A DNA stretch of 38,293 bases, from assembly GCF_004010195.1 (NCBI RefSeq), contig NC_057753.1, forward strand, positions 8,452,263 to 8,490,555. Direction: 5' to 3'. The DNA comes from Chiloscyllium plagiosum. Lineage: Eukaryota. The position numbers and the translations under genes are program-made. A model generated the notes under the pieces. The model searched no databases. It was not told the DNA's origin and saw nothing but the letters and a program-made list of their open reading frames with translations. Below, in pieces: positions 1,042-33,866 of this stretch (position 1 is the stretch's first letter; every line of letters begins with the position of its first letter).

Positions 1042-1946
1042 CTAACATGTCGGCGATTGTCGTCCTGCCTTGAAATAGATGCGGTCTTTCTGGATGCATT
1101 ATTTATTATCTTGTGTCCATGGCAGTGACGGATCTCCTGGTTATTGTCACGACAGTAATTATGAACCGAATTGCTGGAATTTATTTCCCAAACAGTTTCC
1201 TGTCTATTCCACCAATTTGCAGTTTTCGTGCTGCTATAAATTATGCAGTCATGGACAGTTCTATCTGGTTAATGGTCCCATTCACTTTTGATCGACTTGT
1301 GACAATTTCTTGCCAGAAGCTGAAATTAAAGTACTGCACCCAGAAGGTGGCAGCACGGGCAATTGGAACTGTGTTCGTGCTGTCCTGTATAAAGAACGGA
1401 TTCACATATTTTTATTATGAACCTTCATATGTAATTGACAATGTACCCTGGTTCTGTCGCCTAAAACTCTCAGTTTATGAATCACCTTTATGGGCTGCAT
1501 ATGACTGGATTCGTATAATTTTAAGTCCAATTCTCCCATTCATCCTGATTTTACTGTTCAATGCTCTAACTGTCCAACAGATTCTAGTGTCCAACAGAGC
1601 TCCCAGAAGATCTCACAGCAATAGAGAAAATCAGGTTGATTCAGAAATGGAGAAACGCAGAAAATCTATTGTTTTACTTTTTGGCATCTCAAGCAGTTTT
1701 ATCACGCTAAATGTATTATCTTTTATAACGATAGCCTATGTGCGAATAGCAAAACTTACTTACCCTTCATTTCCTGATCTTAGTAATTCCACGTTAATTC
1801 TCCAACAGAGCGGATTCATGCTTCAGTTACAGAGTTCCTGTGTCAACCCATTTATTTACGCCGGGACACAAAATGTATTCAGAGCCGAGTTACTGAAAGG
1901 GTTTATGTATCCATTGAGCCTACTTATAAAAATTCTTAAAGTTTGA
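1042..1946 (+). pseudogene. GPR139/GPR142-like class A GPCR, copy A, coding exon 2 (TM1 end to TM7); one in-frame stop (residual ORF 1113/1119-1946)
   Basis: A polypyrimidine tract plus AG acceptor (ttttctccctattacag) ends at 1041. The frame reads (A)NMSAIVVLP*NRCGLSGCIIYYLVSMAVTDLLV...FTFDRLVTI...KYCT...PWFC...RKSIVLLFGIS...SSCVNPFIY, with TM2 (MAxxD), DRY-like and NPxxY motifs. TGA at 1071-1073 corresponds to CGA at 26481 in copy B. Family assignment is from recalled similarity, not a search. Confidence 0.85.
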
Positions 1947-2839
1947 AAATCGCACCACAACTGCAGCACATATTGCTGTACTGTCTCTCTTTGTCCACGA
2001 TATTCAAAACTTCACTTTGAATGTTCAATTGTTTTCAATTTCTGATATGCTTTATGTATTTCAGAATATAAACTTAGTCGCATTGTTGATAATTATGCAT
2101 GCCTTGCAAGCCGTTTCCAGGTTTTCTCCAGATGCTCAGCAGTTTTGTGATTAAGTTCAGTACACGTCACTGTGGTCTGGGACAACTGCAAAAACTCTTG
2201 ATTTGAAGTCTCCACACAGTTGACTATTCAATAACGATTATTCTTCTCATTATGTCATTGAATGTTAGCGTTCTGGACAAGGGCAACACCCATTTCGATT
2301 TCTAACATTTAATTTGAACCAAACTTCTGATTTATGTCAAGGCCGAGGTGGACTCAATTAGCATTCACACATGCTGAGCACTTCCTGAAACTTTGCCAAA
2401 TATATGCCCTTTCCTGGCAGTAACTACGAATGCCCAATATTAATTGTCTGCATTAATTGATGAATGGCAACAGACAAAACAAAGTGGATAAAGAATAAAC
2501 CTCTGTTGAAAACCAGCAGAGAGTTGTGAATCCTTGTCAAATATCATTTTTTATCACAGGCTAGACTCAGTACAATGAGGAGGAAAAAAAAGACAGCCTT
2601 TACGTTGTCTCAAAGAGGAATCAAGGGCAAGGTGACTGAATCAACATTCATAACGCATTTGGTACACAGTATTACACATTTCAAGGCATTTCGGCCCTCT
2701 GCATTTACGACCTCTCTTGAAAACAAAAATGGATAAAGTAACCTTCTAAAGTGTCCACATAGTCACAATAGGAACAATCCATTTGTGAGAAATATTGAAA
2801 TTTCATCAAGGATATAAAAGAAGATGGCAGTTCAGCAAA

Positions 2840-3781
2840 GAAAAAGTAAAAAAACGAAGAAAAGAGACATACAGGAATAGACCTTTCACCCTCCGAGCTT
2901 GTGTCAATCAGCATGCCTAAATAAACCAAAAATAAACCTTCTACAATTATTCCATCCGTTTCGATCTATTCTGTCCTTTTTTAGTAAACCATCTCAATGC
3001 ATCGTAAATATTGCCAATGTGTTTGCTTCTATCAGCTGTTTTGACGGTGCATTCTAGGCTCTTCCCAATCTCGGCCTAGAGAACGAAATGGTTTAAAATG
3101 ATGTAAGGGGAAACTCTTTCATACAGAGGGTAGTGGGTGCAGTGAATGAGCTACCAGAGGAAGAGGTGGAGGCTGATAAAATTTCAACATTTAAAAGGAT
3201 TTCGGATGGGTATATGGATAGGAAGGTTTTCGAGAAACATGGCCCAAGTGCAGGCAAATGGGAGTAGATTAGGTTCGGGTATCTGGCCAGCATGGACAAG
3301 TTGGACCAAAGGTTCTGTTTCTATGCTATACGTCTCTGATATTCTGTAACTCTATTTCCTTTAAACTTCCACCCTCACTTTGAGTCTGTGTCCGTTTGTA
3401 AATCAAACTTCATCCTTAAGGAGAAAAAAAACCCTGACTAGCCTCCCTATGTATCCCTCCCATAATTTTGTCGAACTCCATTAGGTGTCCTCCTAACCGC
3501 CATTTTTCCAGTAAGAATAATCACAGATGTTTTAACTTTTCCTTATAGCCAATGCCTGCGAGTCCATGCAACAACTTCGTGAATATGCTCTGCACCATCT
3601 CCAAAGCTTCCATGTCCTTCTAGTAGCATAGTGAACAGAACTGCACACTATAGTTCCAATGATGCCGAACAACTGTTTTACGTAGCTGCAACATGGTTTA
3701 CCGAATTTTGTACTCCATGCCCCGACCAATGAAAGCAAGCATGCCATATGCCTTCATACTCATTTTTAGGTAACTGGGACC
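2840..3781 (-). mobile_element. Old CR1 LINE 3' fragment, with a plus-strand CR1 3' end nested at ~3080-3355
   Basis: Degenerate CR1 ORF2 C-terminal sequence (gaactgcacac, aagcaagcatgccatatgcc). The nested piece has gaatgagctaccagaggaag and a short-repeat tail. The same arrangement recurs at ~28230-29157. Confidence 0.65.
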
Positions 3782-5155
3782 CTTCAATAGACAATAGACA
3801 ACAGGTGCAGGAGTAGGACATTCTGCCCTTCGAGTCTGCACCACTATTCAATATGATCATGGCTGATCATCCTTAATCAGTATCCTGTTCCTGCCTTATC
3901 TCCATAACCCTTGATTCCACTACCCTTTAGAGGTCTATCCAACTCTTCCTTAAATGAATCCAGAGACTGGGCCTCCACTGCCCTCTGGGGCAGAGAATTC
4001 CTCACAGCCACCACTCTCTGGGTGAAGAAGTTTCTCCTCATCTCTGTCCTAAATGGTCTACCCCGTATTTTTAAGTTGTATCCTCTGGTTCGGCACTCAC
4101 CCATCAGCGGAAACATGTTTCCTGTGTCCAGAGTGTCCAATCCTTTAATAATCTTATATGTCTCAATCAGATCCCCTCTCAGTCTTCTAAACTCAAGGGT
4201 ATAAAAGCCAAGTCGCTCCAGTCTTTCAGCGTAAGCTAGTCCCGCCATTCCAGGAATTGACCTCGTGTGCCTACGCTGCACTCCCTCAATAGCCAGGATG
4301 TCTTTCCTCAAATTTGGAGACCAGAACTGCACACAGTACTCCAGGTGCGGTCTCACCAGACNNNNNNNNNNNNNNNNNNNNNNNCCTACGCTGCACTCCC
4401 TCAATAGCCAGGATGTCTTTCCTCAAATTTGGAGACCAGAACTGCACAAATTACTCCAGGTGCGGTCTCACCAGAGTCCTGTGCCGCTGCAGAAGAACCT
4501 CTTCGCTTCTATACTCAATCCCTCTTATTATGAAGTCCAGCATGCTATTAGCCATATTCACTACCTGCTGTGCCTGCATGCTTACCTTCATTGACTGGTG
4601 TACAAGAACACCCAGATCGCTTTGTACTGCCCCTTTCCTAAATTGATTCCATTTAGATAGTAATCTGCCTTCCTGTTCTTGCCACCAAAGTGGATAACTA
4701 TATATTTATCCGCATTAAACTGCATCTGCCATGCATCTGACCACTCACCTAACCTGTCCAGGTCACCCTGTAATCTCCTAACATCCTCCTCACATTCCAC
4801 GCTGCCACCCAGCTTGGTGTCATCAGCAAATTTGCTAATGTTATTACTAATACCATCTTCTATATCTTCAATATATATTGTAAAAAGCTGCGGTCCCAGC
4901 ACTAATCCCTGCGGTACCCCACTGGTCACTGCCTGCCATTCCGAAATGGAGCTGTTTATCACTACTCTTTGTTTCCTGTCTGCCAACCAACTTTCAATCC
5001 AAGTTAGTACTTTGCCCCCAATGCCATGCGCCCTAATGTTGCCCACTAACCTCCTATGTGGGACTTTATCAAAAGCTTTCTGAAAGTCCAGGTACACTAC
5101 ATCTACTGGATCTCCGTCGTCCATCTTCAGAGTTACATTCTCAAAAAAAATTCAG
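3782..5155 (-). mobile_element. Young 5'-truncated CR1 LINE (ORF2 reverse transcriptase and 3' end)
   Basis: ORFs 4588-5124 and 3877-4404 contain YLDFQKAFDKVPH, SGVPQG, KFADDTK, LVRPHLEYCVQFWSP and RRNFFTQRVV. The 3' tail is (caataga)n at ~3785-3800. Confidence 0.93.
4362..4384. other. Assembly gap (23 N) with ~91 bp repeated on both sides
   Basis: N run; 4270-4360 recurs at 4385-4475 with two mismatches. Confidence 0.95.
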
Positions 5156-5734
5156 AAGAGCTTTACGACAGGGGTTGGTGAGGTATGTATAACAAATTTT
5201 GAATGTTCCATGGATGAGAATTTGGAATAATTGAAATTGTAAAGGACAAGGATAAGAGACAATTTCATAGACGTTCTTAAATAATGTGAGTCTGGATGGA
5301 GTAGGTAAAGATTTATTGTTCTTGCTAATTAAGTAAAAATCGAAAATGTTAGGACACTGTTGAAAAGTGCGTTGCAAATTAATAATTACCAGGTGGGAAA
5401 AATAACTTCTTCCATACCACAAATATTTAGTGTGTTGCTTGCCTGTCTGGATATGCAGTGCAGCAAGGTTCGGATTGGATATTCAAGATGGTATTGCATG
5501 ATTGCTTAGGTGAAAACAATAGACAACGTGACGGGTAATTGACATTCAAAGGCAATAAATTTGAAATAAATCACAATACTCAGCAAAGAGGTGCAGACGC
5601 GATGGGCCTAAGGACCTGCTTCTGGTCTGCAACAAATCCAACATTCCCATTAGAGATCGCATTTATTTTGGTTGTTTTATTCCCTGCAGGACTTCAATGT
5701 ACCCTATGAATAAATTTGTTGCATGATTTCACTT

Positions 5735-6490
5735 TGAAAGGAACAAAGGGAATAAAGAGTACTTGGCTCATGTTAAGATTCTTGGTAGTGTAGATACGCA
5801 GGGTGGTATCAGTGTCCATGTACATCGATCTGTGAAAGTTCCCAGACAGTTTGAATTTATTGTTAGGAAGGCACATGGTGTGCTGGCTTTTATTGGTATA
5901 TGGATTAAATTTCGGTGACATGAGATCATGTTGCAACTGTACAAAACTCTGATGCGAGCGCACTTGGAGTACTGGAAACAATTCTGGTGACCGCATTTCA
6001 AAAGGATGTGGACCCTTTGGAAAGGGTTCAGAGGAAATTTCCTAGGATGTTGCCTGGTCTGGAGGGAACGTCTCATGAGGAAAGGCTGAGTTACTGGGGC
6101 TGTTTTTGTCAGAGAGACGAAGTTTGATATGTGACTTATTTGAAACATGTAAGATAATCAAAGTGTTAGATAGGGTGGACAGTGATAGCCTTTTGCCTCA
6201 GAAGGTGATGGCTAGCACGTGGGGGCATAGGGGATTACATTAAGGGGTGATTCATATAGGACAGATGTCAGAGGTAGTTTCTTTGCTCAGAGAATAGTAG
6301 GGGCGTTGAATACCCTGCCAACAACAGTAGTAGACTCGCCATCTTGAAGGGTACTTAAATGAATATTGGGTAAACTTATGTATAATAACGGAATAGTGTA
6401 GGACAGATGAGCTCAAGATTGGTTTCACAGGTCGGCCCAACTTCGATGGCCTACAGGCCGTTCCTGCGCTGTAATGTTCTATGTTCTTTT
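5735..6490 (+). mobile_element. CR1 LINE 3' fragment, degenerate
   Basis: cacttggagtactggaaacaattctgg (HLEY.QFW-like), a CR1-type 3' UTR and a tgttctatgttct tail. Confidence 0.8.
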
Positions 6491-7025
6491 GTATTTCCAC
6501 CATGGAAGCTGCCAGGTATTTGTCAGATGCTATCTTCTTCTGCTGGATAGCTGATTATATTATTGGCATGCCCTGTGTTCTCAACCCATCTTCGTTTTAT
6601 GTGTCAGGATTAGATACACAACAGGAAATAACATGGCAATAAAAAGCCACAGGGGGATGAGCAAGAATTAATGTCCAGTGCATCTTAGTACTGAGTGCCG
6701 TTGTCTCAACTCTTCACCATCGATAATCATGACTTCGACAAAGGAAACAAATGTATTGTGCCAATTTATTTTGTATTAATGCATAGAAAGTTTAAAAAGT
6801 TAGCTGTGAAGACAATAGAGGAACTTTCTTTGGGGTCATATAAAGGTGAAGTCAGTGGACAAAAATCTACTGTGTGGAAAAGATCAACTTCCTCACTTTG
6901 TTCAGAAGAATATTAATGGTTTTTTAAAAAAAAATATATGGAGAAAATGGAGAAAGGTACAGATGGACCTGAGAGACCGTTTTGAGAATCATGTGTAGCT
7001 GGTTTACAGGCTGAGCACATGGTTA

Positions 7026-7168
7026 AGGAGAATCGACGTTTCGGGCATAAGCCCTTCTTCTTATGCCCGAAACGTCGATTCTCCTTCTCCTTGGATGCTG
7101 CCTGACCTGCTGCGCTTTTCCAGTAACACATTCTGATCTCCAGCATCTGCAGTCCTCACTTTCTCCTA
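7026..7168. mobile_element. Short Penelope-derived hairpin element with 16-bp target-site duplication
   Basis: GCTGAGCACATGGTTA occurs at 7010-7025 and 7169-7184. A perfect 27-bp inverted repeat spans 7025-7051/7060-7086 and contains the hammerhead-like GGGC-TTAT-GCCC-GAAACGTC. Confidence 0.8.
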
Positions 7169-10100
7169 GCTGAGCACATGGTTAGGAAATCAAACTAAAA
7201 CTTTTGCCTTTCTGCAAGAAGAATGGAATATAAATTCAAGACTGATTTTATCCAGTTGCACAGGATTGCGTTGGGGCGATGTCAGTTGCATTGTTTACAG
7301 TTTAACTCTCTATTTATGAAGGAATGTGAATCTGATAATTAATTTAGAAAATGTCCAAAACACTGACATCTGGAATTTGTGGGTGGGGAACTGGTGTAGG
7401 GGGCGGTGTGATTTTGTATTTTCCAATCAGAATTAACAGTTGTCATATGGCGTGGTAATGTACTACAAACTCTCTATTGATTTTTGTCCCTGGGACAAGG
7501 ATAGTTTACGTATGAAATGCACACTCTTATGTAGAAAGTTCTGAAATTAGTTGTCTTGCTGTCAGCAAGATCAGGATTTTTTTCTTAACGATATGAACGT
7601 TCTACCCGTGTTTATTCACTTTGACTTACTCCCTAAATCTGAATTTTACAGATAAAGTTGCATCTTTTAGGTGAACCCACATTTCCAACTGCTTGATTAA
7701 TACTTTAAATTCAAATTCTAAAAACGCTCTTTCAGAACTCAGCGTTCGTTACACAGAAAGAATCTTTACAACTTGTCAGCATTATCAAATCAGTTCATTG
7801 CAATGCCGTACATTCTGCTAAAGGGTTCAGAAAGTTCAATGGTACAATGTTGGTTAAATGCGCCTCAAAATACTTTCCATCAGTAAGTGTCAGTCTCAGA
7901 ATACTCAGGAGAGGAGGGATTAGGGCCAGATGAGGCCTGTACTGAGGGATCTGCGCAGGGATCAAAAACAGATTAGGTCATCGCTAGCCTGCAGTAACTG
8001 TACCTGGACAGAGTAGAGTTCTCTAGGAGGACAGTTCTCAACAAGTAGCCCTGAGCGACATCAGGCCTAATTGGGAGTCCTTAGAGGGCATTTTCCATCG
8101 AGCAAAACACAACAGTAAATTCAGAGGTAGATCTGAAGGAGAAAAGGAAGACCAGGTAATGTCTTCCTTAACAGTTCAGTGAGAGAACAGAGTACTATCC
8201 ACACCACGTTAACAAGAATTCAACATGCTATACTGACAGGCTATTTTTCCTCTGACATCAGTGAATATCCCAAGTTCTCACCTTAATAAACCTTCTTATT
8301 AGGATCTGTTTTTGGGCCACTGCTTTTATTATTTTCATAAATGATCGGGATATGGGCATAGAAGGATGGGTTAGTAAGTTTGTTGATGACACTAACGTAA
8401 TTTAGTAATATGTCATTTACATGGTCTTAACAATTAAAGAAATTATCAGAAAATTATGAACAAATCATCGACTGACGCTACTAGGCAACTGTAAACATAG
8501 ACCTACAAAAATCAATAAAGCAATCAAAATTGATTAAAGATCAAGGATGAGCTTTCAGAATGTATGCACAGCTGTAATACACTGATCATGTTTGAGAAAA
8601 AAATGCATACTCCACAGATGACTAAATCGTATCTTAATAACTCCATGTAATAATTCACTACAAGCAAGGCACATTTTTGACTTTCAATTTTTAAAAGCAA
8701 ACACACGAAAAAAGGTACATTCACAAAACCAATATGCGTTTATGAATATCGAACTTCCATGAACATGGAGAGAAATATTTCCTCGTTGCATAACCGTGTG
8801 ACCATAATTTAAAATCATGAATGTGTTTGTGGGCAGCAAGGTCTCACTGATTTAACAAGTCGATATCTGCGAGCAGGTAGGAGCATATAAATATTGATGA
8901 TTTTGTTAATTACTTTATGTAATTTATAAATTGATCGAAACCTCAGGAATGTGTTCAGGCTGCACAATTTTGTAGGCATTTTCTCCTCGAAGCAACCTAT
9001 TTAATGTTGCCTGCAAACTCATGATTCGTCAGTCTGATAGCCACGATGTATCGATCCAGAGGTAAGAAACATCTAAGATCCCAAAATATTATCGATCTGA
9101 TGCTGCATAAACTTGAGAATTATATTCTACTGATTTATTCCGAGCAATATTAGATTGCAAATTCTCGTTCCACTCCTACTCATTTTGAAACAAACAGTGC
9201 AGTCCGTTTGGAATGAAGAAATTACATAATGAACATGTTGTAACTCTTTTTATGGTCTGCTTGTGTTGTTATTTCACCAAGTGAAATTAGCACATATATC
9301 CATTACTCCTCCTGAAATCTTCTTCTGGAGTTTGTGTTTACCAGTTGAAAACACAAACTTAAGTTCAGCAGAAATAGTGCTTCTCAACAGTTTTGGCAAC
9401 ATAATGTTCTCACAGGAAGGAACTGGCAGCAAAACCCGGCTGTAAGGTATTTTGTTGTGCCGATGTGTGTGCACAGTAAATTACAATCAAACCCATTGCT
9501 GCACTTGCACGTGATGCTGGTCTGAGCACCGATGTGCATGAGTTTGTTAGTCTCTGGAAAGAAGGAGTGAATGAACATTCCCAAACTGTGGGAATCCAAT
9601 GACCAGAAATTTCTGTTCCTCTTGAAGAGGTGAGTGTCATTACACCCGGAAGGATTGTGTGAATTCATTTTTGTACATTGGGCAGATGAATAAACCTGCC
9701 CTAAGATACGAATTAAATCAACTTACAGTTTCTCAATGCCTTCAAGATCCTGACACTGGCGTCTAAACTGTATATCATGTTGGTGATGCACAAATGAAAA
9801 TTTCATCAAATAAAGTATGTTGAATTTACAAGAAAGAATTGAATTGAATTGAATTTATTGTCACGTGTACCGAGGCACAGTTAAAAGCATTGACTTGTGA
9901 GCAATAAAGGCAGTTCACAGAGTTAAGTAGCATAGAAAAGTAAATCATACGTAAACAGCGGCACAAACAAAAACAAAAGTAAACCGAATGTTAAGAGTTT
10001 GTGAGTCCATTCAGTTTTCTAACAACAGTAGGGTAGAAACTGCTTCGAAATCGGCTGGTGCGTGTGTTCAGGCTTGTGTACCTTCTTCCCGATGGCAGAG

Positions 10101-10920
10101 GTCGCAGAAAAATCATTGGCAGGTAGGATTGATCTTTGAGCATGCTGGCGGCCTTACCTCGCCAGCGGGCCACGTAGATGGATTCTATAGATGGGAGGTT
10201 GGCCTTTGTGATTGTCCCGGCCAAGTTCACCACTCTCTGTAACCGTCTCCGATCTTATATGGTACAGTTGCCATACGAGGTAGTGATACATCCTGACAGA
10301 ATGCTCTCAATGGTGCACCTATAAAATTTGGCAAGGGTATTCACCGCCAAGCCAAATTTCCTCAGCTGCCTGAGGAAGAAAGAAGTTGTTGGGCCTTTGT
10401 AGCCAATACATCCACATGAAGAATCCAAGAAAGCTTGTTGTGGATGATAACTCTCAGGAGCTTGACACACTCCACTCACTCCACCCCTGTGCTGTTAATG
10501 TGTAGGGGGTGGGGGTTGGCATGTAAAACATCCCGCTGAAAGTTAATGACAGTTCCTTGGTTTGCTGGCATTGAATGCTAGGTTGTTCTCAGTCCAACTT
10601 TTTTCCAGGGCTTCAATCTCCCGTCTGTAGTCTGTTTCGTCGCCATCTGAGATTTGACCAATAAGATGGTGTCATCAGCAAATTTGTAAACGGCATTAGT
10701 CTGGTATTTGGGGATGCAGTCATGGTTATACAGTGAGTACAGAAGGGGGCTGAGTACGCAATGCTGTGGGCTCCAGTGTTGAGTGTTAGTGAGGATAAAA
10801 TATTGTCCCCAATATTCATTGACTGTGGCATGTTGGTCAGGAAACTAAGGATCCAGTTGCAGTGAGTGGGGCTTAGTCCGAGATCACTAAGTTTAGTAAT
10901 CAGTCTCGAGGGGATAATAG

Positions 10921-11500
10921 TTCAAAGTTTGTGCGAAGATTTGTAGCTCGGGTGCTCGTTGTTGTGGTTCTGTTCGCCGAGCTGGAAGTTTTTGTTGCAA
11001 ACGTTTCGTCCCCTGGCTAGGCGACATCATCAGTGCTTGGGAGCCTCCTGCGAAGCGCTTCTTTGATGTTTCCTCCGGTGTTTATAGTGGTCTGTCCCTG
11101 CCGCTTCCGGTTGTCAGTTTCAGCTGTCCGCTGTAGTGGTTGGTATATTGAGTCCAGGTCGATGTGTTTGTTGATGGAGTTTGTGGATGAATGCCATGCC
11201 ATGAATGCCATGAATTCCCTGGCTGTTCTCTGTCTGGCTTGCCCTATGATAGTAGTGTTGTCCCAGTCGAATTCATGTTGCTTGTTGTCTGTGTGTGTGG
11301 CTGCTAAGGATAGCTGGTCGTGTCGTTTCGTGGCTAGTTGATGTTCATGTATGCGGAACGTTAGCTGTCTTCCTGTTTGTCCTATATAGCAACATGAGTG
11401 TTGTCCCAGTCGAATTCATGTTTCTTGTTGTCTGTGTGTGTGGCTACTAAGGATAGCTGGTCGTGTCGTTTCGTGGCTAGTTGATGTTCATGTATGTGTT
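10921..11500 (-). mobile_element. Penelope-like element 3' fragment (GIY-YIG endonuclease C-terminal half plus terminal repeat)
   Basis: The minus strand encodes [24 protein letters not shown]...FDWDNTTIIGQA...AREF...WHSSTNSINKH. It is flanked by GATAATAG at 10913-10920 and 11501-11508. Confidence 0.85.
10997..11036 (-). ncRNA. Minimal type I hammerhead ribozyme motif in the Penelope terminal repeat
   Basis: The minus strand reads GCA-CUGAUGA-U-GUC-G-CCU-AGCC-AGG-G-GAC-GAAAC-GUU-UGC. It has both core boxes, stem II, a 3-bp stem I (GCA/UGC) and the palindromic AACGUU in place of stem III. Confidence 0.7.
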
Positions 11501-12602: not shown

Positions 12603-15600
12603 GGAACAAAAAGCAAAGAACAAAGAAAATTTACAGCCCGGGAACAGGACCTTTGACCCTCGAAGCCTGAGCCAATCCACATCCACTTTCTAAACTTGTC
12701 GCTCAATTGCTAAGCATCAGTAATCCTCTGCTCCCCACCTACTCAAGCATCTGTCCAGACACATCTTAAATGAATCTACCGTGTCTGCCTCGAGTGCCTC
12801 TGCTGGCAACGCATTCCAGATACCTACCACCCTCTGTGTAAAGTACTTGCCGCATGTACCCCCCTTAAACTTTTTCCCCTCTCACCTTGAAAGCGTGACC
12901 TCTCGTTATTGAATCCTTCACCCTGGGAAAAATCTTATCTCTATCTATCCTGTCGATACCCTGACCTCAATCATGACCCCAATCTCATTTTTTCTAATTA
13001 AAACAATCCTAACCTACTCAACTTCTCTTCATTCCTCGTTCCTTCCATACCAGGCAACATGCTCGTAATATTTTTTCCGCACTCACTCCAAAACGTCTAC
13101 ATCCTTTTGGTAATGGGGCGACAAGAACTGTACACAGTATTTTAGCATGACCTGCCAGTTCTAATACTCAATACCACGTCCAATGTAGGAACCATACCAT
13201 ATGACTTCTTGACCACTCTATCCACCTGTCCAGCTTCCTTCAGTGTACAATGGACCTGAACTCCCAGATCTCTCTGCTCATCAACGTTTCCCACGGCTCT
13301 TCTGTTTACAGTATAAATCGCACTCGAATTAGACTTGCCAAAATGCATCACCTCACATTTGCCTGGATTGAACTCCATGTGCCACTTGTCAACCCAACTC
13401 TGGACTCTATCTATATTCTCCTGTATTCTTTGACAGTCCCCCATGCTTTCTGCTCCTCGATCAATCTTTGTGTCATCTGCTAACTTGTTGATCATACCAA
13501 CAGTGCCCCTTTCCAGATTATTTGTGGATATCACAAACCACAGTGGCCCCCAGCACTAATCCTGTGGAATAACACTTGTCACTTTGCTCTATTTCAAGAA
13601 ACTCCCTTCAACTCCCACTCTTTGTCTCCTGTTTAAACAGGTGTTTTTATCCATCTCCCCACAATACCCTGCACACCATGTGACTTCACTGTCTCCATTA
13701 ATCTACCCTGGGGATCCTTATCAAACGCCTTACTAAAGTCCATGTATATGACATCTACAGCCCTTGCTTCATTTATCAACTTGGCCACTTTATCAAAAAC
13801 TCTATTAAGTTGGTAAGGCACGAACTCCCCCACACAAAACCATGTTGCCTATCACTGATAACCCCATTCTATTTGAAATATAAATAGATTTTATCCCTCA
13901 GTACCTTCTCCAGCAAAGTTCCCAAAACAGACGTCAGGCTCACTGGTCTGCAGTTATCTGGAATATCCCTAATACCCTTCTTGTACAGGGGGACAACATG
14001 AGCAACCCTCCGGTACTCCGGCACCACACCTGTTTTTAGGATGTACAAAGACATTCGTCACAGCCCCAGCTATTTCCACTCTGGCCTCCCTCAGCAACCT
14101 GAGATATATCCCATCCGAACATGGGGATTTGCCTATCTTGATAACCTCAAGCCCATCCAACACATCTTCCTTGCTTATGTCAACGTGAGCCAGAGTAATC
14201 AAACTTCTATCTCTAATCTCAACATTCATCAGTGAACACTGATGCAAACTAATCATTCAGAATATCACCCATTTTCTCAGGTTTCCTTCCTTATCCTTCA
14301 GTGGACCAATCATTTTTCTAGTAACCCGCTTGCTTCTTATATAAGAAAAAAGTCGTTGGTATTCTATTTAATTCGGTTCGCTGAAGCTATTTCATGACCT
14401 CTTTTAGCCAGCTTGATTCCTTGTTTAAGTCTGTTCCTACTCTCCCGATATTCCTTCAAGGCCCGTTCTGTTCTTAGCTGCTTGGAGTATATGCATGCTT
14501 CCCTTTTCCTCTTGGCTAGTCATACGATTCCCCCTACCACCCACGGTTCATGAATCTTGCCTTTCCTATCCTTTGCTTTCAACGGGACTTGCCCATCCTG
14601 CAACTATCTTTAACCTATCTTTGAAAGCCTCCCACATATCAAATGTGGACTTTCCTCCAACTAGCTGTGTGCAATCCACATTTCACAGCTCCTGCCTAAT
14701 TTTGATATAATTGGCCTTGGCCCAGTTTAGAACTCCTCCCTTAGGACCCTCTCATGTTTGTCTACGAGTATTCTACAACTTACAGACTTGTGGTCACTAT
14801 TCGCAAAGAAATCCCTCAACGCTACTTCTACCACCTGGCCTGGCTCATTCCCCAACACCAGGTCCAATATGATCCATTCCCTCGTCTGACTATTGACATA
14901 CCGCTCTTGGAAACTCTCCTGGACCCTTCTTACAAATTCTGCCCCATCCAGACCTCTGACATTACGTGTATCCCAGTCACTGTTGGGAAAATTATAATCT
15001 CCCATCACCACCATCCTGTTGCTTCTACATCTTTCCATCATCCGTTTACCCATTTGTTTTTCTACCTCACGCTCATTGTTGGGAGGCCTGTAATACAGCT
15101 CCAACAATGTAACTGCACACTTCTTATTTCTCAGCTCCATCCCGAATGCCTCACTACTCATTAGTGTCGTCCTTTATCACAGCCGTGATATCATCCCTGA
15201 CCAGCAATGCAACTCCTACCCCCACGTTTTACTTCCCTCCCTGTGCTGTCTGAAGCGTCTATATCCTGAAACATTTAGTTGCCATTCATGCCCTTCCTTC
15301 AACCAAGTTTTTATGATTGCAATAACGTCTTACTCCCAGGCACCAATACAAGCCCTAAGTTCATCTGGCTTGCCCACTATGTTCCTTGCATTAAAGTATA
15401 TGCACTTCAGGCCACCAGTTATTTTGCATTCATCTGCTCCCTGCCTACTCTTCCCCTTGTTAATGCTAACATCATGATTCTTACAGTCTCCAGTTTCCAC
15501 CTCGCTATCTACTTGTCGTCTCTTGTGGTTCCCAGCCTGCTGACACATTAGTTTAAAACCTCCCCAGCAGCAATAGCAAAAACTCCCCCAAGGACTATGC

Positions 15601-16303: not shown

Positions 16304-16417
16304 AAACAGAAATTGTTGGAGAAATGTTTTGTATGTTTTGACACTTCTTCAAGCGTTAACTCTGTTTTCGCTTCATGGGTGCTGCCAGATCTGAAAGTAT
16401 CTCCATTTATTTCTGTT
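16304..16417. repeat. Degenerate short inverted-repeat element, probably Penelope-derived
   Basis: The ends aacagaaat...atttctgtt are complementary. The internal cgttaactctg...gctgccagatctg resembles shark PLE-derived repeats as I recall them. Confidence 0.4.
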
Positions 16418-17781: not shown

Positions 17782-18470
17782 TTAAACAAATAATCTTAGT
17801 GGGTATTTCCCTCAATTTTTTAATTCCGTTCTGAATTTACTCTGGGTCCCAGCATAAATGAACGGGTTAATGCAGGAACTCAACACTTGAAGCATGCAAC
17901 CAGTTTGTTGGATGATAAACGTGGAATTGATGACATTGGAACCTGAGGAATAAGTCACATTCCCAATTCGGACATACAGCATGGTTATAAAAAGAGCCAA
18001 ATATAGCAGGATGAAATTGCCTGAGATGGCGAATAGTAAAACAATTGACTTTTTTCGTTTTCTTATCTCTGCATCATTCTTATTCTCATCTCTGCTCTGG
18101 ATCCGGGCCCTGTGTAGTCCTGTATTGGCAGCTACAATATCTCTAACCGTCAGAGCATTGAAATGTAAAATCAGAACGAATGGAATCCAGTCATACACAG
18201 TCCATGCAGATGACTGATAATATATTTCTTTATTGACACAAAGCCAGAGAACATTGTTAATTATATATCTAGGTTCAAATATAAAACACAAAAAGACACT
18301 TTTATGCAGATCAATATGGTTATCATTACTATAATCCATTCTGTCATGCCCCAAGTGCAATACCGTATTTTTACCTTCTGTAAAGAAATGGCCATAAATC
18401 GATCAAAAGTGAAAGCGGCCGTTAACCAGGCAGCACTGTTAATTGCTGCAATGTTTAAAGCTGTTCGAAC
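17782..18470 (-). pseudogene. GPR139/GPR142-like GPCR pseudogene, copy C (TM3-TM7 only)
   Basis: Two overlapping frames read WLTAAFTFDRFMAISLQKVKIRYCT..., then EPRYIINNVLWLC...YDWIPFVLILHFNALTV...RKKSIVLLFAISG...LSSCINPFIYAGTQSKFRTEL. There is a frameshift near 18300, an ~8-codon loss after YDWI, an early TGA at 17812 and no recognisable TM1-TM2. Confidence 0.88.
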
Positions 18471-18724
18471 ATTAGAATCCACACGTTTATACCTGAAGTA
18501 TACAGTCTTGCAATATGATCCAAAAGTGCACATCGTTATTTCCACTGCAGAAAGCTATTCGATTTTTTTAAACATTATGTATTGAAACGCAGTGTCATAA
18601 CATAATTATATAATACAAAGAGATATGAAGGAGGACAAGATTTTAAAAAGCGCTTAGAAGTCAGCAGCAGAACAGTCATCAACAGAGAACAAAAACACAA
18701 GCAAATAATTTTTAACAATTGAGT

Positions 18725-20100
18725 AATAGAGCCAATAGAGCTGTACAGCACGCCAATTGTCCATGCCGACCAGATATCTTAAATTAATATCATTACATTT
18801 GCCAGCATTTGGCCCGTACCACTCTGAATCCTTCCTATTTATGTATCCATCCTGTTGTCTTTCCAGTGTTTCTCTTGTACCAGCTTAAAAAATTCTTCCT
18901 CTGGCAGCTCAGTCCATACACGCACCACAATCTGTTTGAAGAGGTTGCCCCTTGAGTCCCTTTCAAAGCTTTCTCACCCTGAACGTAAGACTCTGGATTT
19001 GTATTCCCTACCCCGAGAAAAAAACTACGTTGGCTGTTCATCCTATCCATGCTCTTCATGCTTTTATAAACCTCAATAAGGTCACCCTGCAGCGTCCGAT
19101 GCTCCAGAGGAAATAAACACAGTCTATTCAGCCTCTTCATATAATTCAAACCTTCCAATGTTGGGAACAGTCTTGTCGATATTTTCTACATCCTTTCAAG
19201 TTTAACATTACCATTCTTTGTAGCACGGCAACCATAATTGAATGCAATATTTCAAAAGTGGGCGAATCAATATCCTGCACAAGGCAACTGGACATCTGGA
19301 CTCCTACATTCAATGTGCTGACCAAAATTGCATACCAACTGATTTCTTCACGACTAGTCAAGCTGTAGCTCCACCTTCAGCGAACTGTGAATTTGCAGCG
19401 CAAGATTTCTTTGCTTGGCAAGACTCCCTAGGCAATAACTTTCACTGAACCATTCCTGTCCTGATTTGCCTGAACAAAATGAAACAGTGCACACGCATTG
19501 AAATCTGCTCCAACTGCCACTCCTCTGCCCATTGACCCTTCAGAACCAAGACCCTGTTTTAAACAGAGATGACCTTCTTCAGTGTTCATGACACCACCAA
19601 TTTTTATGTCATCTGTAAACTTTCTAAACTTTTTCTCCAATGTTCACATCCAGGTCACTTTTATAAATGACAAAAACCCCTGGACCAAGCACCAATCCTT
19701 GCAGCACACTGTTGGTCACAGGATTCATGTCTGAAGACCAACCCTCCCCGAATGTCCAGTATATCATACCTTCAAACCAATTTTCTATCCAAATGGCCAG
19801 TTGTCTCTGCATTCCAAATAATATAACCAGCATGGCATCCGGAATCTTGTCAAATGTCATGCAGAAGTTTATACAGATAATGTACACCGTCAGTGTTCTT
19901 TGTCATTTTATCTAAAACTGAATTAAGTTTTTGAGACACGATTTCCATTGTACCAATGTTGAATATCCCTAAGCGGTCCTAGCATTACTAAATACATCAA
20001 AATCTTGTCCCTCAGCATTCCGTCCAAAACGTGCCCACCGTTGACGTCAAGCTCACAAGTCGATAGTTCCCTGGCGTATTTGTGGAACCTTTCTTAAATG
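18725..20100 (-). mobile_element. Degenerate CR1 LINE 3' portion
   Basis: Fragments FDKIPD, SVLQGLVLGP, KFTDDIKIGG and LQGDLIEVYK, with many frameshifts. Confidence 0.85.
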
Positions 20101-20999
20101 CAAGCAAGCAGCAAACTAATCAAATAAAGCAACATATTAACTTGAATAGGGATGTAATCTCACGGAGATCCAAAGTGGTTCATTTCATTTCAGTTACAAA
20201 AGTCTTAAATCTTGGAAAAATCTGAAAACAGTTTTCGAAAATATCCTCGAGCAGAATGATTTGTTAATTAACGCGCCAAGGCCATTTGCAGAGGACATTT
20301 TTGGTTGAATCAGTGCCAAGTCTGTTTTCTTCAACGAACTATAATTTGGAATCTTCATTGCAATGATCCCCGGGAAGTTGCAGATTAGGACGTCTTAATA
20401 GACAAAACGAACTTCCTAAAACATAATGCCTCTTTGGTGCTGCAGGGCAGATTCTGGATAAATGACCAAAAGTATTATAGTCTGCATAATTCATAAAATG
20501 AACTGTTGAATTAAATGTGAACTTTAATTGAGAATTTGGGATTCAATCAATGTGAAAGTGTGAATGATGAAGGAAGCAGCTCCAGCATTGCAGATGCCAC
20601 AACAGCAGTACATAACTTAGATTGTCCACTATTATAATGGGTGTGTGGGCGAGTTCATTTTCTTGTCTTCCCTGGAGGACCTTGTGTAAATTTCAGCACA
20701 TTAAGCGCTTCCACAGTATAAATAAGAACGTCATCAAAAAAAGTCCATAAATTGCGTCGCTGACCCAATGGTGATAAGAGTGTGGAAGTACAAAGCTGGC
20801 CATTGGCATAAATGTTCCATGAACAAACATTGGTGAAGTGGCCTTGCAGCCTGATATCACTAATCCCCATAAATCGCCGTCCGATTTTCAATTCTCCTCT
20901 GATGTCGACATCTCTTTGCATTCTAATTATTTAATCATTCTCTTCTCCTCCATCTACTCCACAATAGATCTCTTGACAGATTCTATATCTAAGAGCGAG

Positions 21000-21480
21000 G
21001 GCATGGTGCCTTGCCCGACTCTTCCAGTCACAGATGGAGTCTCCAAAATATTTGCATTATGTACGCTCAAAGGTTGCCTTGCATGTGCAGACAGTGGAGA
21101 GATTTATCATTTGTTGGGAACAGCAAACTCGTGCAAATCCTTCTCCTTCTACACAACAGTATTTTGGCAACCTGTAAATGATTTCAAAATAGTCGACAAG
21201 TAAAGAAGAGGTCGTCCTATATGAAAAGTTATGGGAGACCTCTAAATGCCGTCCTATACATTGGCCACTCCAAATACCGAACAATCAGCACAATGAGTGT
21301 GAAGTCGGTGTTTCCAGTTGAAACAAGAAGAACACAAAAGCACGACTCCATGAGATAGAAACACGTGCCAGGCAGACATTAAAGGCCTTCCACGGCAATT
21401 TGTTTTGTAACTCTATCAAGATTCTTGTAGCTGTTGATATCCATTTAAATAGATTGAATTCCAAGTTAAGTATGAACAAA
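21000..21480 (+). mobile_element. Possible very old Penelope-like remnant
   Basis: Weak motifs in the expected order: TLP...GVS, TVF..P.N, then ETRRT..RLHE-like. Heavily decayed. Confidence 0.3.
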
Positions 21481-21820
21481 TTGTTCAATAATTCGTTACA
21501 CTCAGCAATTCTCTTACTTCTGAGAAATATTAAGTTGTCCTCTCATTGAAAACCGAAATATATCGCGCTTTCAGTGCCATGCTGCTCTCCAGATGACAGC
21601 ATTTACAAATAAACAATCTGCGAAAGGCATGAAATGACTTCTGTCACGAGAAACATTCTAAGTATGATGGGAATCATTTGTGTGTATTATGTGAAAGTAT
21701 TATATTAGAAGCTGTTAGTTAACCAAACAGCTAAAAGTGAGTCGTTACACAAGATCAGAACTGTACAAAGTATTCTAAATGCAGTCTTGGACGAATTTAA
21801 CATGAGCTTCCCGCTTTTTT

Positions 21821-22131
21821 TTACATTACATTACATTACAGTGTGGAAACAGGCCCTTCGGCCCAACAAGTCCACACCGCCCCGCCGAAGAGTAACCCTC
21901 CCAGACCCCAACATTTACCCCTTACCTAACACTACGGGCAAATTAACATGGCCAATTCACCTGATCTGCACATCTTTGGACTGTGGGAGGAAACCGGAGC
22001 ACTCGGAGGAAACCCACGCAGACACGGGGAGAACGTGCAAACTCCACACAGTCAGTCGCCTGAGGCGGGAAATGAACCCGGTCTCTGGCGTTGTGAGGCA
22101 GCAGTGCTAACCACTGTGCCACCGTGCCGCC
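21821..22131 (-). mobile_element. HE1-type (V-SINE) tRNA-derived SINE, full length
   Basis: The minus strand starts GGCGGCACGGTGGCACAGTGGTTAGC (A box) and has GGTTCATTTCC (B box), the V-domain GTGTGGAGTTTGCACGTTCTCCCCGTGTCTGCGTGGGTTTCC and a (TGTAA)n tail. Confidence 0.9.
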
Positions 22132-22990
22132 GACAAAATATAATAAATACCCTGTCCGATGAAGACAAGCATACCATATGCCTTTTTGCCGACTTTATCC
22201 ATCTGTACAGCAACCTTCGGGGTACAATGGACCTGAACTCCCAGATCTCTCTGCTCATCAACTTTTCCCAAGGCTCTTCCGTTTTCTATATAATTCGCTC
22301 GAGAACTAGACTTGCCAAGATGCATCACCTCACATCTGCCTGAATTGAACGCCATCTGCCACTTCTCCACCCAACTCTCCAGTCTATCTATATTCTCATA
22401 TATTCTTTGACAGTCCCCTATGCTTTCTGCTACTTCATCAATCTTCGTGTCATCTGCAAGCTTGCTGATCATACCAACAGTGCCCCTTTCCAGATTATTT
22501 GTGTATACACAAACCACATTGGCCCCAGCACTGATCCCTGTGGAACACTACTGGTCACCTTTCTCCATTTCGAGAAACTTCCTTCAACTACTACTCTCTG
22601 TCTTCTGTTGCTCAACCTGTTCTTTATGCACCTAGCTAGAACACCGTGCACACCATGTGAGTTCACTTTCTCCATTAGTCTACAATGGGGATCCTTATCA
22701 AACGCCTTACTAAAGTCGATGTATAAGACATCTACAGCCCTTCCTTCATTTATCAACTTGGTCACTTCCTCAAAGAACTCTATTAAGTTGGTACGGCACG
22801 ATCTCTCCCATACAAAATCATGTTGCCTATCACTGATAAACCCATGCTTTTCCAAATCTAAATAGATGTTTATCCCTCAGTACCTTCGCCATCGACGTTC
22901 CCACCACTGACGTTAGGCTCACTTGTCTGTAGATACCTAGAATATCTCTACTACCCTTCTTGTACAGGGGAACAACATGAGCAACCATCT
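22132..22990 (-). mobile_element. CR1 LINE ORF2 RT fragment
   Basis: NLIEFFEEVT...DFSKAFDK...SVPQGSVLGP...KLADDTK; same family as 13142-14010. Confidence 0.9.
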
Positions 22991-23324
22991 GCTGAATTCT
23001 GCTGAACAAAATGGGAACATACGCGTATGAGTAATTTTCATAATAAATGGAGTGGCACTAATCAAGAACTGACAAACATAATTATCAAGTGGAACTATAC
23101 CAGGTCACTAGATTAGCAAATGGTGAATGGATTATAAAAATATTTTTTTAGAATTGAGAGACAACTGCTCTTTGAAATTGGCCTCACAGGTAGACATTCA
23201 GCATGCCTTCATGCTCACACATTTGAGTATAAAATCAGGATGTCATATTGAGGTTGGACAGGAGATTGGAGAGGTTTTTTTTTCCAGAGTACTGTGTGAG
23301 ATCTGGTTGCCCTGTGAAAGAAAT

Positions 23325-23833
23325 CATAGAACATAGAACAGTACAGCACAGAACAGGCCCTTCAGCCCACGATGTTGTGCCGACCACTGATCCTCATGTA
23401 TGCACTCTCAAACTTCTGTGACCATATGCATGTCCAGTAGTCTCTTAAATGTCCCCAATGACCTTGCTTCCACAACTACTGCTGGCAACGCATTCCATGC
23501 TCTCACAACTCTCTGTTTAAAGAACCCACCTCTGATATCCCCTTTGTACTTTCCTCCAACCAACTTAAAACTATGACCCCTCGTCTTAGTCATTTCTGCC
23601 CTGTGAAATAGTCTCTGGCTATCGACTCTATGCCTCTCATTACCTTATAAAGCTCAATTAGGTCCCCTCTCCTCCTCCTTTTCTCCAATGAAAAAGGTCT
23701 GAGGTTAGTCAACCTCTCTTCATAAGATAAGCCCTCCAGTCCAGGCAGGATCCTGATAAACCTCCTCTTAACCTTCTCCAAAGCATCCACATCTTTCCTA
23801 TAATAGGGCGACCAGAACTGGACACAGTACTCC
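23325..23833 (-). mobile_element. CR1 LINE 3' end inserted in an older plus-strand CR1 remnant
   Basis: EYCVQFWSPYYRKD...RGDLIE, FFKQRVVRAWNALP and a (catagaa)n tail. Confidence 0.9.
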
Positions 23834-24498
23834 AAATTATATCATTATAATGGATGGATTCAGAAAATATTTCGCAGAATGGTACCAGGGATGCAGTGTT
23901 TGAGTTATAAAGATACACTGCATACACTAAGACGTCATTCCCTTCAGTTTGGGGGGTGGACATATACAGGTGTATTAAAACCATGTAGGGCAAAGATGAG
24001 GCTAGTAGATTGGGTTTTTCCAGAGGATGAAGGAGATCAAAATAGGGAGCATGTTTTAAAGGTGAGAGGAGAAGTGGTGGGTGGACATAACTTGATAAGT
24101 GGGATTATTTTAGATTCGGAGCATGGTCTATATGTAATAGTGGGGATCTAAATATTTTATTTCCATGATAAATGATTCTTCGACTCCATGACTCAAATGT
24201 AACTGTGCTAAATTTAACAATTTCGCACTGAAAGCAGCTTTGCTTTTTTAGGCCTGTCACTCGTCAACTTGGCATATGCGTTCCACAGTTTTAATCATGC
24301 CATCTCTCGAGAAAATATTTATTTCTAACAAAAAGTTACCTTCATCGGGGTACCATTTGCAACGATGTGTTTTTTACTACCGGCTTCATTTGTTCAAAAC
24401 ATTCTAATCAACTAATTGTCTCCCAGTTGCCTGACAACAGTTATGAAAGCCACAACTTCTCTGTGAGGTGCAACGGTCTTCCCAAGATTTTAATAGAA

Positions 24499-24568
24499 AT
24501 GCATGAGGCACTGAGAGGACTACCATTTGCCATTTATTATCTCGTGCTTGCAATCATCGGGGCTCCAG
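24499..24568 (+). pseudogene. GPR139-like GPCR copy B, coding exon 1
   Basis: ATG at 24499 gives MHEALRGLPFAIYYLVLAIIGAP+G, then the donor GTAAAG at 24569. The exon is 70 nt (phase 1), matches the phase of the acceptor at 26451 and rebuilds TM1 as YY..LAIIGAP|ANM. Confidence 0.85.
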
Positions 24569-24857
24569 GTAAAGAAATGAAAAAATCTGCGTAAAATGCG
24601 TACTAAATTTGTTAATTCTCTCATTTGAAAATAACAACTCTGCGTTATAGTTTTCTTAGCTGCAGGAATAAAATATTCCCTGCGCCAGGAAAAGATATTC
24701 ATTCCATGTGGTATAGACTTTCCAAAATGAACGAATATTACTATCTGCGTCGACTGTGTAGCATTAAAACCATTTTTTCTTTCATTCATTAACCGAGTGT
24801 TGCTATTTCCATGATCATGATTGAGGGACGGTGGTGTTGGACTGCGGTGTCAATATG

Positions 24858-25018
24858 AAAAATATCACAACACCAGGTTACAATCCAAAAGATTTATTTG
24901 ATAGCACTAGCTTTCAGCACGCTGCTCTTTCATCACGTGATGAATGAACAGCACTCTGAAAGTTAGTGTTTACAAATAGGCTTGTTGAATAATGACCTGA
25001 TATTGTCTAATTTGTAAC
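24858..25018. mobile_element. Degenerate palindromic Penelope-derived element with a decayed hammerhead motif
   Basis: Imperfect ~80-bp inverted arms centred on the perfect palindrome TTCATCACGTGATGAA (24929-24944); TGATGA...GAAAGTTA remnant. Confidence 0.65.
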
Positions 25019-25881
25019 ATATTTCATGGTATTATCGCTCAAATCTGAAAAGAAAAATGATCAACAGAGTGACTGCATTTATTGTGTTAATGTACCATTT
25101 ATATTTGCATTAAATTAATTATAGAAATTCTCCAAAAACATCCGCTAAAAAACAGAGGAAGTTAATGTTGATACTTTGTGTTTTTACATTTTCATTGTAA
25201 GGTAAATAATAATTCAATTACCACAGTGAAATTCAATATTATTTATGCTTTGGAAATGATATTGTTGATGAGCTGCTAAGTAATTGCTATGGTGATATAA
25301 TCTTCCTGTCTATACTCTGCGGTTGAATTATTCTATTGTTATCGCTGTGTTTAATGTTTAAGTGCAACTATATGCTTCTGTGAATTATCACACTAAATTC
25401 ATGATGTCAGTATAGATCTATGGTAGCACCGGTTTTTCACGTAGATGGAGAAATTCCCATAAATCATTCATTAATTTACAAGATCGAGCAAATGAAGAAT
25501 TTCGACTAATTTTATTGAAAAATATGTTCAAACGTTTTTACGAAGCATTAGGATGTTGATAGGTACAACAGATCTATTGTTATTATTTTTACTTGACCGC
25601 TACTTGTCAGTATTTCCTCCAGAACAGTATTTATGTTCTCAATCTCCAAAAGATTCTGCTTTACCTCAAGTCTCCACTTCCACACTCACTGCAGCTGAAG
25701 ATTCTGTATTGTTGAGCACTGTGATTGAGATCCAAGGAGATGACAATATCTGAGATCCTCTTCCAATCTTTTCTTCTCTTTCCGTGTTCAACAAAGTTCC
25801 ATAAATTGTGTCCTTTCTTGAAGCAGGTTTTTAAAATATCGTCGAATCACGACATGATAAATATGATCATTTAAATTTTAG

Positions 25882-26079
25882 TGGAGTTTATTTCCCAGTT
25901 TCCTGTCTATTACAGCAATTTGCAGGTTTCGTGCTGCTATAAATTATGCAGTCATGGACACTTCTGTCTGGTTAATGGTCCCATTCACTTTTGATCAACT
26001 TGTGACAATTTCTTGCTGGAAGCTGAAAATAAAGTACTGCACCCAGAAGGTGGCAGCAAGGGCAATTGGAACTGTGTTC
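25882..26079 (+). pseudogene. Intronic fragment of GPCR exon 2 (ECL1-TM3-ICL2-start of TM4)
   Basis: Matches 1175-1376 and 26585-26786 (gtgctgctataaattatgcagtcatggaca...gcaattggaactgtgttc) with a 4-nt deletion; absent from the copy A intron. Confidence 0.9.
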
Positions 26080-26451
26080 AAATGTTGCTAATGTGGACAC
26101 TAACCTTCCGTGGATCTGCCTTTCCATTCTTTCACTATTTGTTTTATTTCTTTTCAATCCGTTTTGATGTTCCTGTACTAATTTTGGAGAAAAGCCGATT
26201 TCATGCTGTTATTCATTTGCTGTCATTTGATGTATTTGTAATCCTATGACAATCAACGGATGTACTTTCAATTTGCATGAGAGAACTAAAGGCAGAACGT
26301 AATTTTATGATTAATTGCAATCTTACAACCATTGACACAGTTTTCCAAATTTATGCATTCGCTGACTTTAGCAATTTTAATTATATTAATGTTAACTTCA
26401 CTGTTTTCCCTGCTTCTTGCATCGATATTTCTCTATTTCTCCCTATTACAG

Positions 26452-27446
26452 CTAACATGTCGGTGATTGTCGTCCTGTCTCGAAATAGATGCGGTCTTTC
26501 TGGGTGCATTATTTATTACCTTGTGTCCATGGCAGTGACGGATCTCCTGGTTATTGTCACGACAGTAATTATGAACCGAATCGCTGGAATTTATTTACCA
26601 AACAGTTTCCTGTCTATTACACCAATTTGCAGTTTTCGTGCTGCTATAAATTATGCAGTCATGGACAGTTCTATCTGGTTAATGGTCCCATTCACTTTTG
26701 GTCGACTTGTGACAATTTCTTGCCAGAAGCTGAAATGAAAGTACTGCACCCAGAAGGTGGCAGCACGGGCAATTGGAACTGTGTTCGTGCTGTCCTGTAT
26801 AAAGAACGGCTTCACATATTTTTATTGTGAACCTTCATATGTAATTGACAATGTACCCTGGTTCTGTAGCCTAAAACTCTCAGTTTATGAATCACCTTTA
26901 TGGGCTGCATATGACTGGATTCGTATAATTTTAAGCCCAATTCTCCCATTCATCCTGATTTTACTATTCAACGCTCTAACCGTCCAACAGATTCTAGTGG
27001 CCAATGGAGCTCGCAGAAGATTCCGATCTCACAGCAATGGAGAAAATCAGGTTGATTCAGAGATGGAAAAGCGCAGAAAGTCTATTGTTTTACTTTTTGG
27101 CATCTCAGGCAGTTTTATCACGCTAAACGTGTTGTATTTTATAACGATAGCCTATATTCGAATAACAAAACTTACTTACCCTTCATTTCCTGATCTCAGT
27201 AATTCCACGTTTATACTCCAACAGAGCGGATTCATGCTTCAGTTGCTGAGTTCCTGTGTCAACCCATTTATCTACGCCGGGACACAAAATGTATTCAGAG
27301 CCGAGTTACTGAAAGGGTTTAAATATCCGTGGAGCGTTTTTTATAAAAAATGCTTAATGTTCGAAAATCGCACAATAGCTGCACCACATATTGCTATACC
27401 ATCTCTCTTTGTTCATGATATACAGAATTTCACTTTAAATGTTTAA
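26452..27446 (+). pseudogene. GPR139/GPR142-like GPCR copy B, coding exon 2; in-frame stop and altered DRY motif
   Basis: ORFs 26277-26738 and 26757-27446 share a frame, separated by TGA at 26736-26738 (TTA at 1326 in copy A). TFDR is TFGR at 26700. NPFIY is present. The C-terminus is frameshifted and extended relative to copy A. Confidence 0.88.
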
Positions 27447-33770: not shown

Positions 33771-33804
33771 CGCTAACAAAGATGTACTGGAAATGAACCT
33801 TCAA

Positions 33805-33866
33805 GCTCAGCGAGCAAACCTACATCCAAAACCTCAACCTGTGCTACAGATCTTCTCAAACTCGCA
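33805..33866 (+). mobile_element. Short Penelope terminal-repeat remnant
   Basis: cagcgagcaaacctacatcc...gctacagatcttctcaaactc resembles the reverse complement of 10921-10990. Confidence 0.45.

Follow-up and report, generated by a model that had tools for sequence, protein, structure and literature searches.

Broken receptor genes in Chiloscyllium plagiosum and an elasmobranch expansion of GPR139-related receptors with a possible chemosensory function

Analysis of a 38,293-nt stretch of the Chiloscyllium plagiosum genome (RefSeq assembly GCF_004010195.1, contig NC_057753.1, positions 8,452,263 to 8,490,555 of the forward strand; hereafter the window) revealed three gene copies, A, B and C, and one exon fragment of a class A G protein-coupled receptor (GPCR) family. 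Comparison with annotated proteins indicates an elasmobranch expansion of a GPR139-related orphan receptor with an apparently diversified pocket, which is real and apparently undescribed, and the window would be a decaying part of one of its tandem arrays. The intact paralogs may constitute a chemosensory repertoire, a reading that is weighed below against three alternatives.

Size and Distribution of the Receptor Family in Sharks

Using the reading frame of copy A as query, 375 homologs were detected among 1348 candidates (annotated proteins). The family counts reported here are lower bounds, as they refer to the best 120 of the 375 homologs, derive from a word-limited search of other sharks' annotated proteins and were partly made by hand. 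The best 120 had identities of 58-66% and all but one (119/120) originated from 12 shark species. The horn shark Heterodontus francisci contributed 74, located on four scaffolds (54, 10, 8, and 2 proteins), the 54 sharing one scaffold of 59.5 Mb, and the whale shark contributed 15, of which 11 are encoded on one scaffold of 11.7 Mb. With a median pairwise identity of 72% in the shark homolog set, these homologs are not alleles. The initial annotation of the window had suspected a large clustered expansion, which is borne out by these data; it had called the expansion chondrichthyan, and the sequences covered, from sharks and a skate, show it for elasmobranchs.

A profile search of representatives at 50% identity retrieved 131 at E ≤ 1e-30, many of them partial models, within which named proteins of horn shark and skate are nested. 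Judged from these sequences, the family divides into deep subfamilies, with proteins of the same two fishes as anchors. In the tree, the closest neighbors of the window copies are proteins of zebra and bamboo sharks; P0155, P0175, and P0206 were placed at the base of the clade in a quick tree.

No description of the shark expansion was found in the literature within the reach of the search, outside of which lay the supplement of PMC11979771, Yun et al. (2015) and subscription papers. GPR139 is not mentioned in the main texts of PMC11979771, PMC8455134, and PMC10620051, nor in any of the 24 supplements of PMC8455134.

Pocket Variation and Conservation of the Signaling Core

Regarding sequence variation in the 74 horn shark paralogs (76% mean identity), mean entropy was 1.06 at pocket positions versus 0.62 at other sites of the transmembrane helices (TM) (p 5e-5). 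The corresponding values were 0.15 and 0.47 in 20 amphibian orthologs (79% identity) and 0.67 and 0.90 in 29 members of a conserved vertebrate clade (clade i, described below). The shark-minus-amphibian entropy excess was larger in the pocket than at outer non-pocket sites (p 0.004; by residue class p 0.036). Pocket sites change charge class among the 74 paralogs, as at 5.42 (H43/R11/L9) and 5.43 (R35/H13/C7/S7), and an 8-site pocket signature, illustrative only because its sites were picked after the entropies, occurred in 67 distinct forms in the 74 paralogs and in one form in the 20 amphibians. Meanwhile, D2.50, D3.49, R3.50, N5.58, N7.49, P7.50, and C45.50 are invariant in 74/74 horn shark paralogs, and the signaling core (D2.50, R3.50, N5.58, N7.49, Y7.53 and the cysteines of TM3 and extracellular loop 2, ECL2) is retained in sharks. 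With the pocket diversified and the core kept, a one-ligand receptor has seemingly turned into a many-pocket family still able to signal, and the varied shark pocket is as would be expected of a many-ligand repertoire.

The pocket of the amphibian/sturgeon gene is nearly invariant and basic (R2.61, K6.51, K6.55, R6.59, R7.35), and its sequences suggest a conserved acidic endogenous ligand for this receptor.

Relationship to GPR139 and Related Orphan Receptors

The automatic name GPR139 ("probable GPR139") is attached to 105 of the best 120 homologs (hand count), and could be taken to mean that the family consists of bona fide GPR139 duplicates sensing Trp/Phe or opioid/melanocortin peptides in brain. 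Profile searches lend some support to such a reading: GPR139 was the top PDB match of a broader profile (E 4e-36, against 1e-27 for the runner-up) and also came first in several further searches. However, the subfamily profile scored TRHR (3e-13) and GPR139 (9e-13) alike, and the open reading frame (ORF) of copy A had no PDB match at E ≤ 0.001. Membership of class A is supported by Pfam 7tm_1 and by N1.50, D2.50, DRY-like, P5.50, and NPxxY-like motifs. The model predicted for an intact relative from a deeper alignment (predicted local distance difference test, pLDDT, 89; a first model with pLDDT 54 was set aside) has seven TM helices and helix 8, and a fold search with it placed 7VUG (human GPR139) first, narrowly and at only 20% identity (E 2.7e-9 vs 3.3e-9); with so small a margin over other class A receptors, this search carries little weight.

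Four GPR139 residues are needed for Trp/Phe, according to PMC5430874: F109, H187, W241, and N271. In the 74 horn shark paralogs, the F109 position (3.33) is aromatic in 66 (Y50/F16) and the H187 position is H in 43, but the W241 position is W in two and Y in 70, and the N271 position is N in none; copies A and C have Y, R, N, and F at the four positions. Because these residues are mostly replaced, it cannot be assumed from GPR139 that the shark receptors sense aromatic amino acids. The amphibian orthologs retain F, W, and N at this site in 20/20. W6.48 is present in 28/31 deeper representatives, so that its loss marks this subfamily. The main subfamily has Y instead of W at 6.48 and has also lost the TM6 proline (P in 11/74 horn shark paralogs), a combination that, as an activation switch, would be atypical of class A.

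Human GPR139 (PDB 7VUG, 9M42), taken together with GPR142 as the nearest known counterpart, resembles the shark family beyond its rank in the profile and fold searches, having a similar TM1 stretch (YY..L..G.PAN), an aromatic residue at 3.33 and M7.40. The differences from GPR139 comprise, besides the low identity, W6.48, P6.50, R6.51, and N271, which are mostly replaced in the shark subfamily, and a TM3 cysteine and hairpin ECL2 in the shark family where no TM3 cysteine aligns in GPR139; the family also has very many copies, as opposed to one in the case of GPR139 and GPR142. The same automatic name is moreover carried by at least two other separate clades. The database name thus misleads: on these sequences the window copies are not GPR139 copies, human GPR139 is only their closest solved relative, and true GPR139 duplication is a very improbable explanation of the family. 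Of the GPR139-like identity proposed in the initial annotation, what stands is that GPR139 is the nearest characterized receptor, the copies themselves belonging to a separate clade linked to amphibian and sturgeon sequences.

Quick trees of 71 and 48 chosen rows, built without any GPR139 or GPR142 sequence, gave three vertebrate-type clades. Clade i is a conserved gene of teleosts, sturgeon, coelacanth, amphibians, turtles and sharks, with no mammal or bird among the 120 matches listed; its members (P0231, P0223, P0345, P0356 and relatives) are also automatically named GPR139, and a zebra shark model of this clade is annotated as a TMEM183A isoform, which hints at a neighboring gene. Clade ii is an unnamed pair. 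Clade iii (SH-like approximate likelihood ratio test, SH-aLRT, 100) joins the shark radiation to the amphibian/sturgeon gene, for which 20 amphibian matches came from 20 species, one each (P0219, P0387-P0406 including sturgeon). This gene is apparently a single-copy, ortholog-like sister of the shark radiation.

Three vertebrate sets beside GPR139/142, two of them named GPR210A and GPR210B, were described by Rinne et al. (2019; PMC6504862), and "Orphan 139-like" and NMOGPR appear among the orphans tabulated in PMC5207463 following Yun et al. (2015). As such sets are listed in both sources, the ancestral gene of the radiation has probably been catalogued already, and by sequence it is probably one of these published "GPR210/139-like" orphans. 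Like the published sets, which are clades beside GPR139/142 without human orthologs, the clades of our trees number three, and one contains the shark radiation; the published GPR210 sets, however, are described from gar, teleost and coelacanth, and the word shark is absent from the main text of PMC6504862. Judged by its sequences, the radiation belongs to the wider GPR139/142-related group. The protostome receptors for MIP/sex peptide, FMRFamide, myosuppressin, and proctolin are reported as sister clade of GPR139/142 in PMC8557429, as an expansion from the same root, and the Atlas neighbors of the shark family include FMRFamide-receptor-like clusters. Unlike the shark family, these receptors have endogenous amidated neuropeptides as ligands, and their paralogs are old and stable rather than fast-turnover arrays.

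Receptor Copies in the Window

Searches by tblastn, self-blastn and a six-frame family profile confirmed what the initial annotation had noted, namely three copies and one fragment in both orientations, at different levels of divergence and all with lesions. Besides exon 1 of copy C, no further gene remnant was detected at E<1 in the same six-frame searches of the whole window. Pfam 7tm_1 scored above cut-off in three of five pieces scanned (pieces of A, B, and C).

Copy C, on the plus strand at 24499-27446, is the one with a complete gene structure. Exon 1 (24499..24568) has an ATG and 23 codons plus 1 nt (G) before a GT donor, and matches the N-termini of intact relatives with 70% identity over 23 aa (E 1e-7); it is followed by a GT-AG phase-1 intron of 1883 nt (24569..26451), with the junction GAP|AN in TM1, and by exon 2 (26452..27446). 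Its lesions are a nonsense TGA at 26736-26738, as assembled, where copy A has TTA at the matching codon, a D to G change in the DRF motif (D3.49G) and a +1 frameshift near 27335-27341, by which the C-terminal tail is extended to 27446. The spliced product, estimated in the initial annotation at about 325 aa with few residues before TM1, amounts to 324-326 aa, as in intact relatives, and the N-terminus is indeed very short, TM1 starting at residue 5 when an intact relative is modeled by AlphaFold. The pocket-coding region is contained in a single exon.

Copy A is represented on the plus strand by exon 2 (1042..1946), from the second half of TM1 to the C-terminus, and by the 3' part of the intron (1..1041), which is ~90% identical to the copy C intron and ends in an AG acceptor (1040-1041); its exon 1 was not found within the window. 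It is a pseudogene by a nonsense TGA at 1071-1073, as assembled, the matching codon of copy C being CGA. Copy B (17812..18515, minus strand; profile match 18515-17773) is inverted and 5'-truncated, consists of TM3-TM7 only, without exon 1 and TM1-TM2, and has ~65% nucleotide identity to A and C. Its lesions include a 1-nt frameshift near 18300, the loss of 24 nt at 18183/18184 and, at 17812-17814, a premature stop; it lies on another sub-branch of the shark subfamily in a quick tree, with weak support (SH-aLRT 81). The exon-2 fragment (25882..26079, plus strand, 198 nt), covering extracellular loop 1, TM3 and the start of TM4, lies inside the copy C intron and is 94% identical to copy A, and likewise to copy C.

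Duplication, Selection and Decay

Copies A and C are products of a 3.8-kb segmental duplication, window positions 1-3786 matching 25179..29161 in the same (plus) orientation with 89.6-91.5% identity in the introns, 94.7% in exon 2 and 82-84% in the 3' flanks. That they are uncollapsed haplotypes was rejected, as the flanks differ by 10-18%. In exon 2, 24 synonymous changes at 202 sites and 22 nonsynonymous changes at 674 sites (dN 0.033, dS 0.129, dN/dS 0.26, Fisher p 1.3e-5) indicate purifying selection, from which it follows that selection acted on both copies during much of the period after duplication, before each was inactivated by a different stop. Synonymous divergence climbs along exon 2 (0.04, 0.10, 0.18; 1042-1925 vs 26452-27341), although from few sites, and could possibly reflect partial gene conversion at the 5' end of the exon.

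With nine nonsynonymous differences and one synonymous difference from copy A, the exon fragment was rejected as a functional alternative exon because of its nonsynonymous excess, and its sequence is that of a piece undergoing neutral decay. About 20 nt of the copy A intron (645-665) resemble both ends of the fragment, at the same site as in C; the fragment may have arisen either by microhomology-guided templated insertion in C or by internal deletion in A. The window thus records birth-and-death evolution, as the initial annotation had proposed: duplication, a period of selection, then loss by nonsense mutation, truncation and frameshift.

Repeats and Assembly Features

Remnants of long interspersed nuclear elements (LINEs) with reverse transcriptase and endonuclease matches lie at 4270-5151, 13164-15173, and 22140-22989, RVT_1 and endonuclease matches being found in three of seven window ORFs scanned; the pieces 13164-14010 and 22140-22989 are 85% identical to each other. 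A degraded element resembling a long terminal repeat retrotransposon occupies 30200-33900, with gag-, protease-, and integrase-like remnants recognized by eye and no Pfam match in the one ORF scanned. Related repeats at 11017-11496 and 37696-38293, likewise without Pfam match, are presumably of Penelope type, going by their resemblance to such retroelements. A 23-N assembly gap (4362-4384) is flanked by a 91-nt direct repeat and is probably an unmerged overlap, and an imperfect 170-nt palindrome within the copy C intron (24852-25023) is probably a miniature inverted-repeat element.

Possible Functions of the Family

In the scheme proposed here, new copies would arise by segmental duplication, be kept under purifying selection for a time and then be lost, and the shark pocket would have diversified from a single-copy ancestor of the amphibian/sturgeon type with the signaling core retained. 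The intact paralogs would form a many-ligand repertoire for variable foreign molecules, the likeliest ligands being peptides or amino-acid derivatives carried in the water, and would serve in sensory cells or chemosensory epithelial cells. The TAARs, which descend from an amine receptor of the brain, offer a parallel. That these elasmobranch-expanded receptors are a chemosensory repertoire seems to us just short of an even chance. The wider proposition, that sharks and rays own a further, undescribed chemosensory family built from a GPR139-related neuropeptide-type orphan, is offered more tentatively. Chemosensation is favored because relatives bind aromatic amino acids and aromatic-ended peptides (PMC8557429) and known shark repertoires are small. 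The latter are reported as V2R-dominated (PMC6368271; PMC11979771), with two odorant receptor (OR) genes, six OR-like genes and 32 V2R genes examined in the catshark (PMC11979771, section 13). The observations of the initial annotation are confirmed, and its interpretation is supported in part.

The shark family shares with the OR, TAAR, V1R/ORA, TAS2R, and V2R repertoires clustered birth-and-death evolution, a short N-terminus and, as it appears, a variable pocket on a conserved core, and with TAARs an origin from a single non-sensory receptor (PMC8890504). It differs from these vertebrate chemosensory repertoires in ancestry and in gene structure, with two exons separated by an intron in TM1.

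Several points weigh against a chemosensory, many-ligand repertoire. All three copies and the fragment in the window are broken, and the quick trees lack GPR139 and GPR142, as stated above. The 38 pocket positions follow what we take to be a generic list for class A and were placed on the sequences through motif anchors. The entropy contrast is no dN/dS test, pockets in any family drift further among paralogs than among orthologs, and for the horn shark alone, with outer-half non-pocket sites as comparator, the pocket excess is not significant (p 0.075). Regarding expression, the 50 most specific brain-and-olfactory genes of the catshark include no GPCR and shark OR-family genes are expressed in spleen, testis and stomach, according to PMC11979771. 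This latter pattern means that a repertoire-like family need not be sensory, and that family shape does not fix the tissue.

Clustering, turnover and a variable pocket would fit equally well with an immune repertoire, in which leukocytes, mast cells or barrier epithelia would use the receptors to recognize peptides of microbial origin or released by damage, like FPRs or MRGPRs. The disulfide-tied beta-hairpin ECL2 of the predicted model, as in peptide receptors, is in keeping with this, and MAS1 and its relatives are reported as lacking in cartilaginous fishes (PMC8455134), so that an MRGPR-type niche may be open there. The solved relative GPR139 is, however, a brain receptor (PMC5430874), and in the profile search GPR139 and the neurotensin receptors come ahead of chemokine and formyl-peptide receptors; from the sequences, we regard an immune repertoire as somewhat unlikely.

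Alternatively, a receptor of an endogenous ligand may have been amplified by duplication-prone, LINE-rich DNA into partly redundant copies whose pocket varies by relaxed constraint rather than by new specificities. The array is embedded in LINE debris, every copy in the window is dead, the strict within-shark pocket comparison given above falls short of significance, and the synonymous gradient, drawn from few sites, hints at gene conversion. Against these stand purifying selection that continued after duplication, core motifs that are (nearly) invariant in 74 paralogs while the pocket switches charge class, and the persistence of the family in 12 shark species and a skate, which together leave relaxed constraint an improbable account.

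Significance

The window's own copies are pseudogenes, of value only as a turnover record. They lead to a class A family that has gone unnoticed behind a single automatic name, although each genome has dozens and probably hundreds of its members, with an apparently diversified pocket. Cartilaginous fishes, by contrast, have been portrayed as having comparatively few GPCRs (PMC8455134). Existing multi-tissue shark RNA-seq makes a clear test of its role possible. If the chemosensory reading is true, the at least 74 distinct horn shark proteins of one subfamily would exceed the reported catshark V2R repertoire and would help explain odor and taste discrimination in animals with few ORs. Whether the family is sensory or immune, a neuropeptide-type receptor would in it have independently given rise to a recognition repertoire, with the amphibian ortholog representing the ancestral state.

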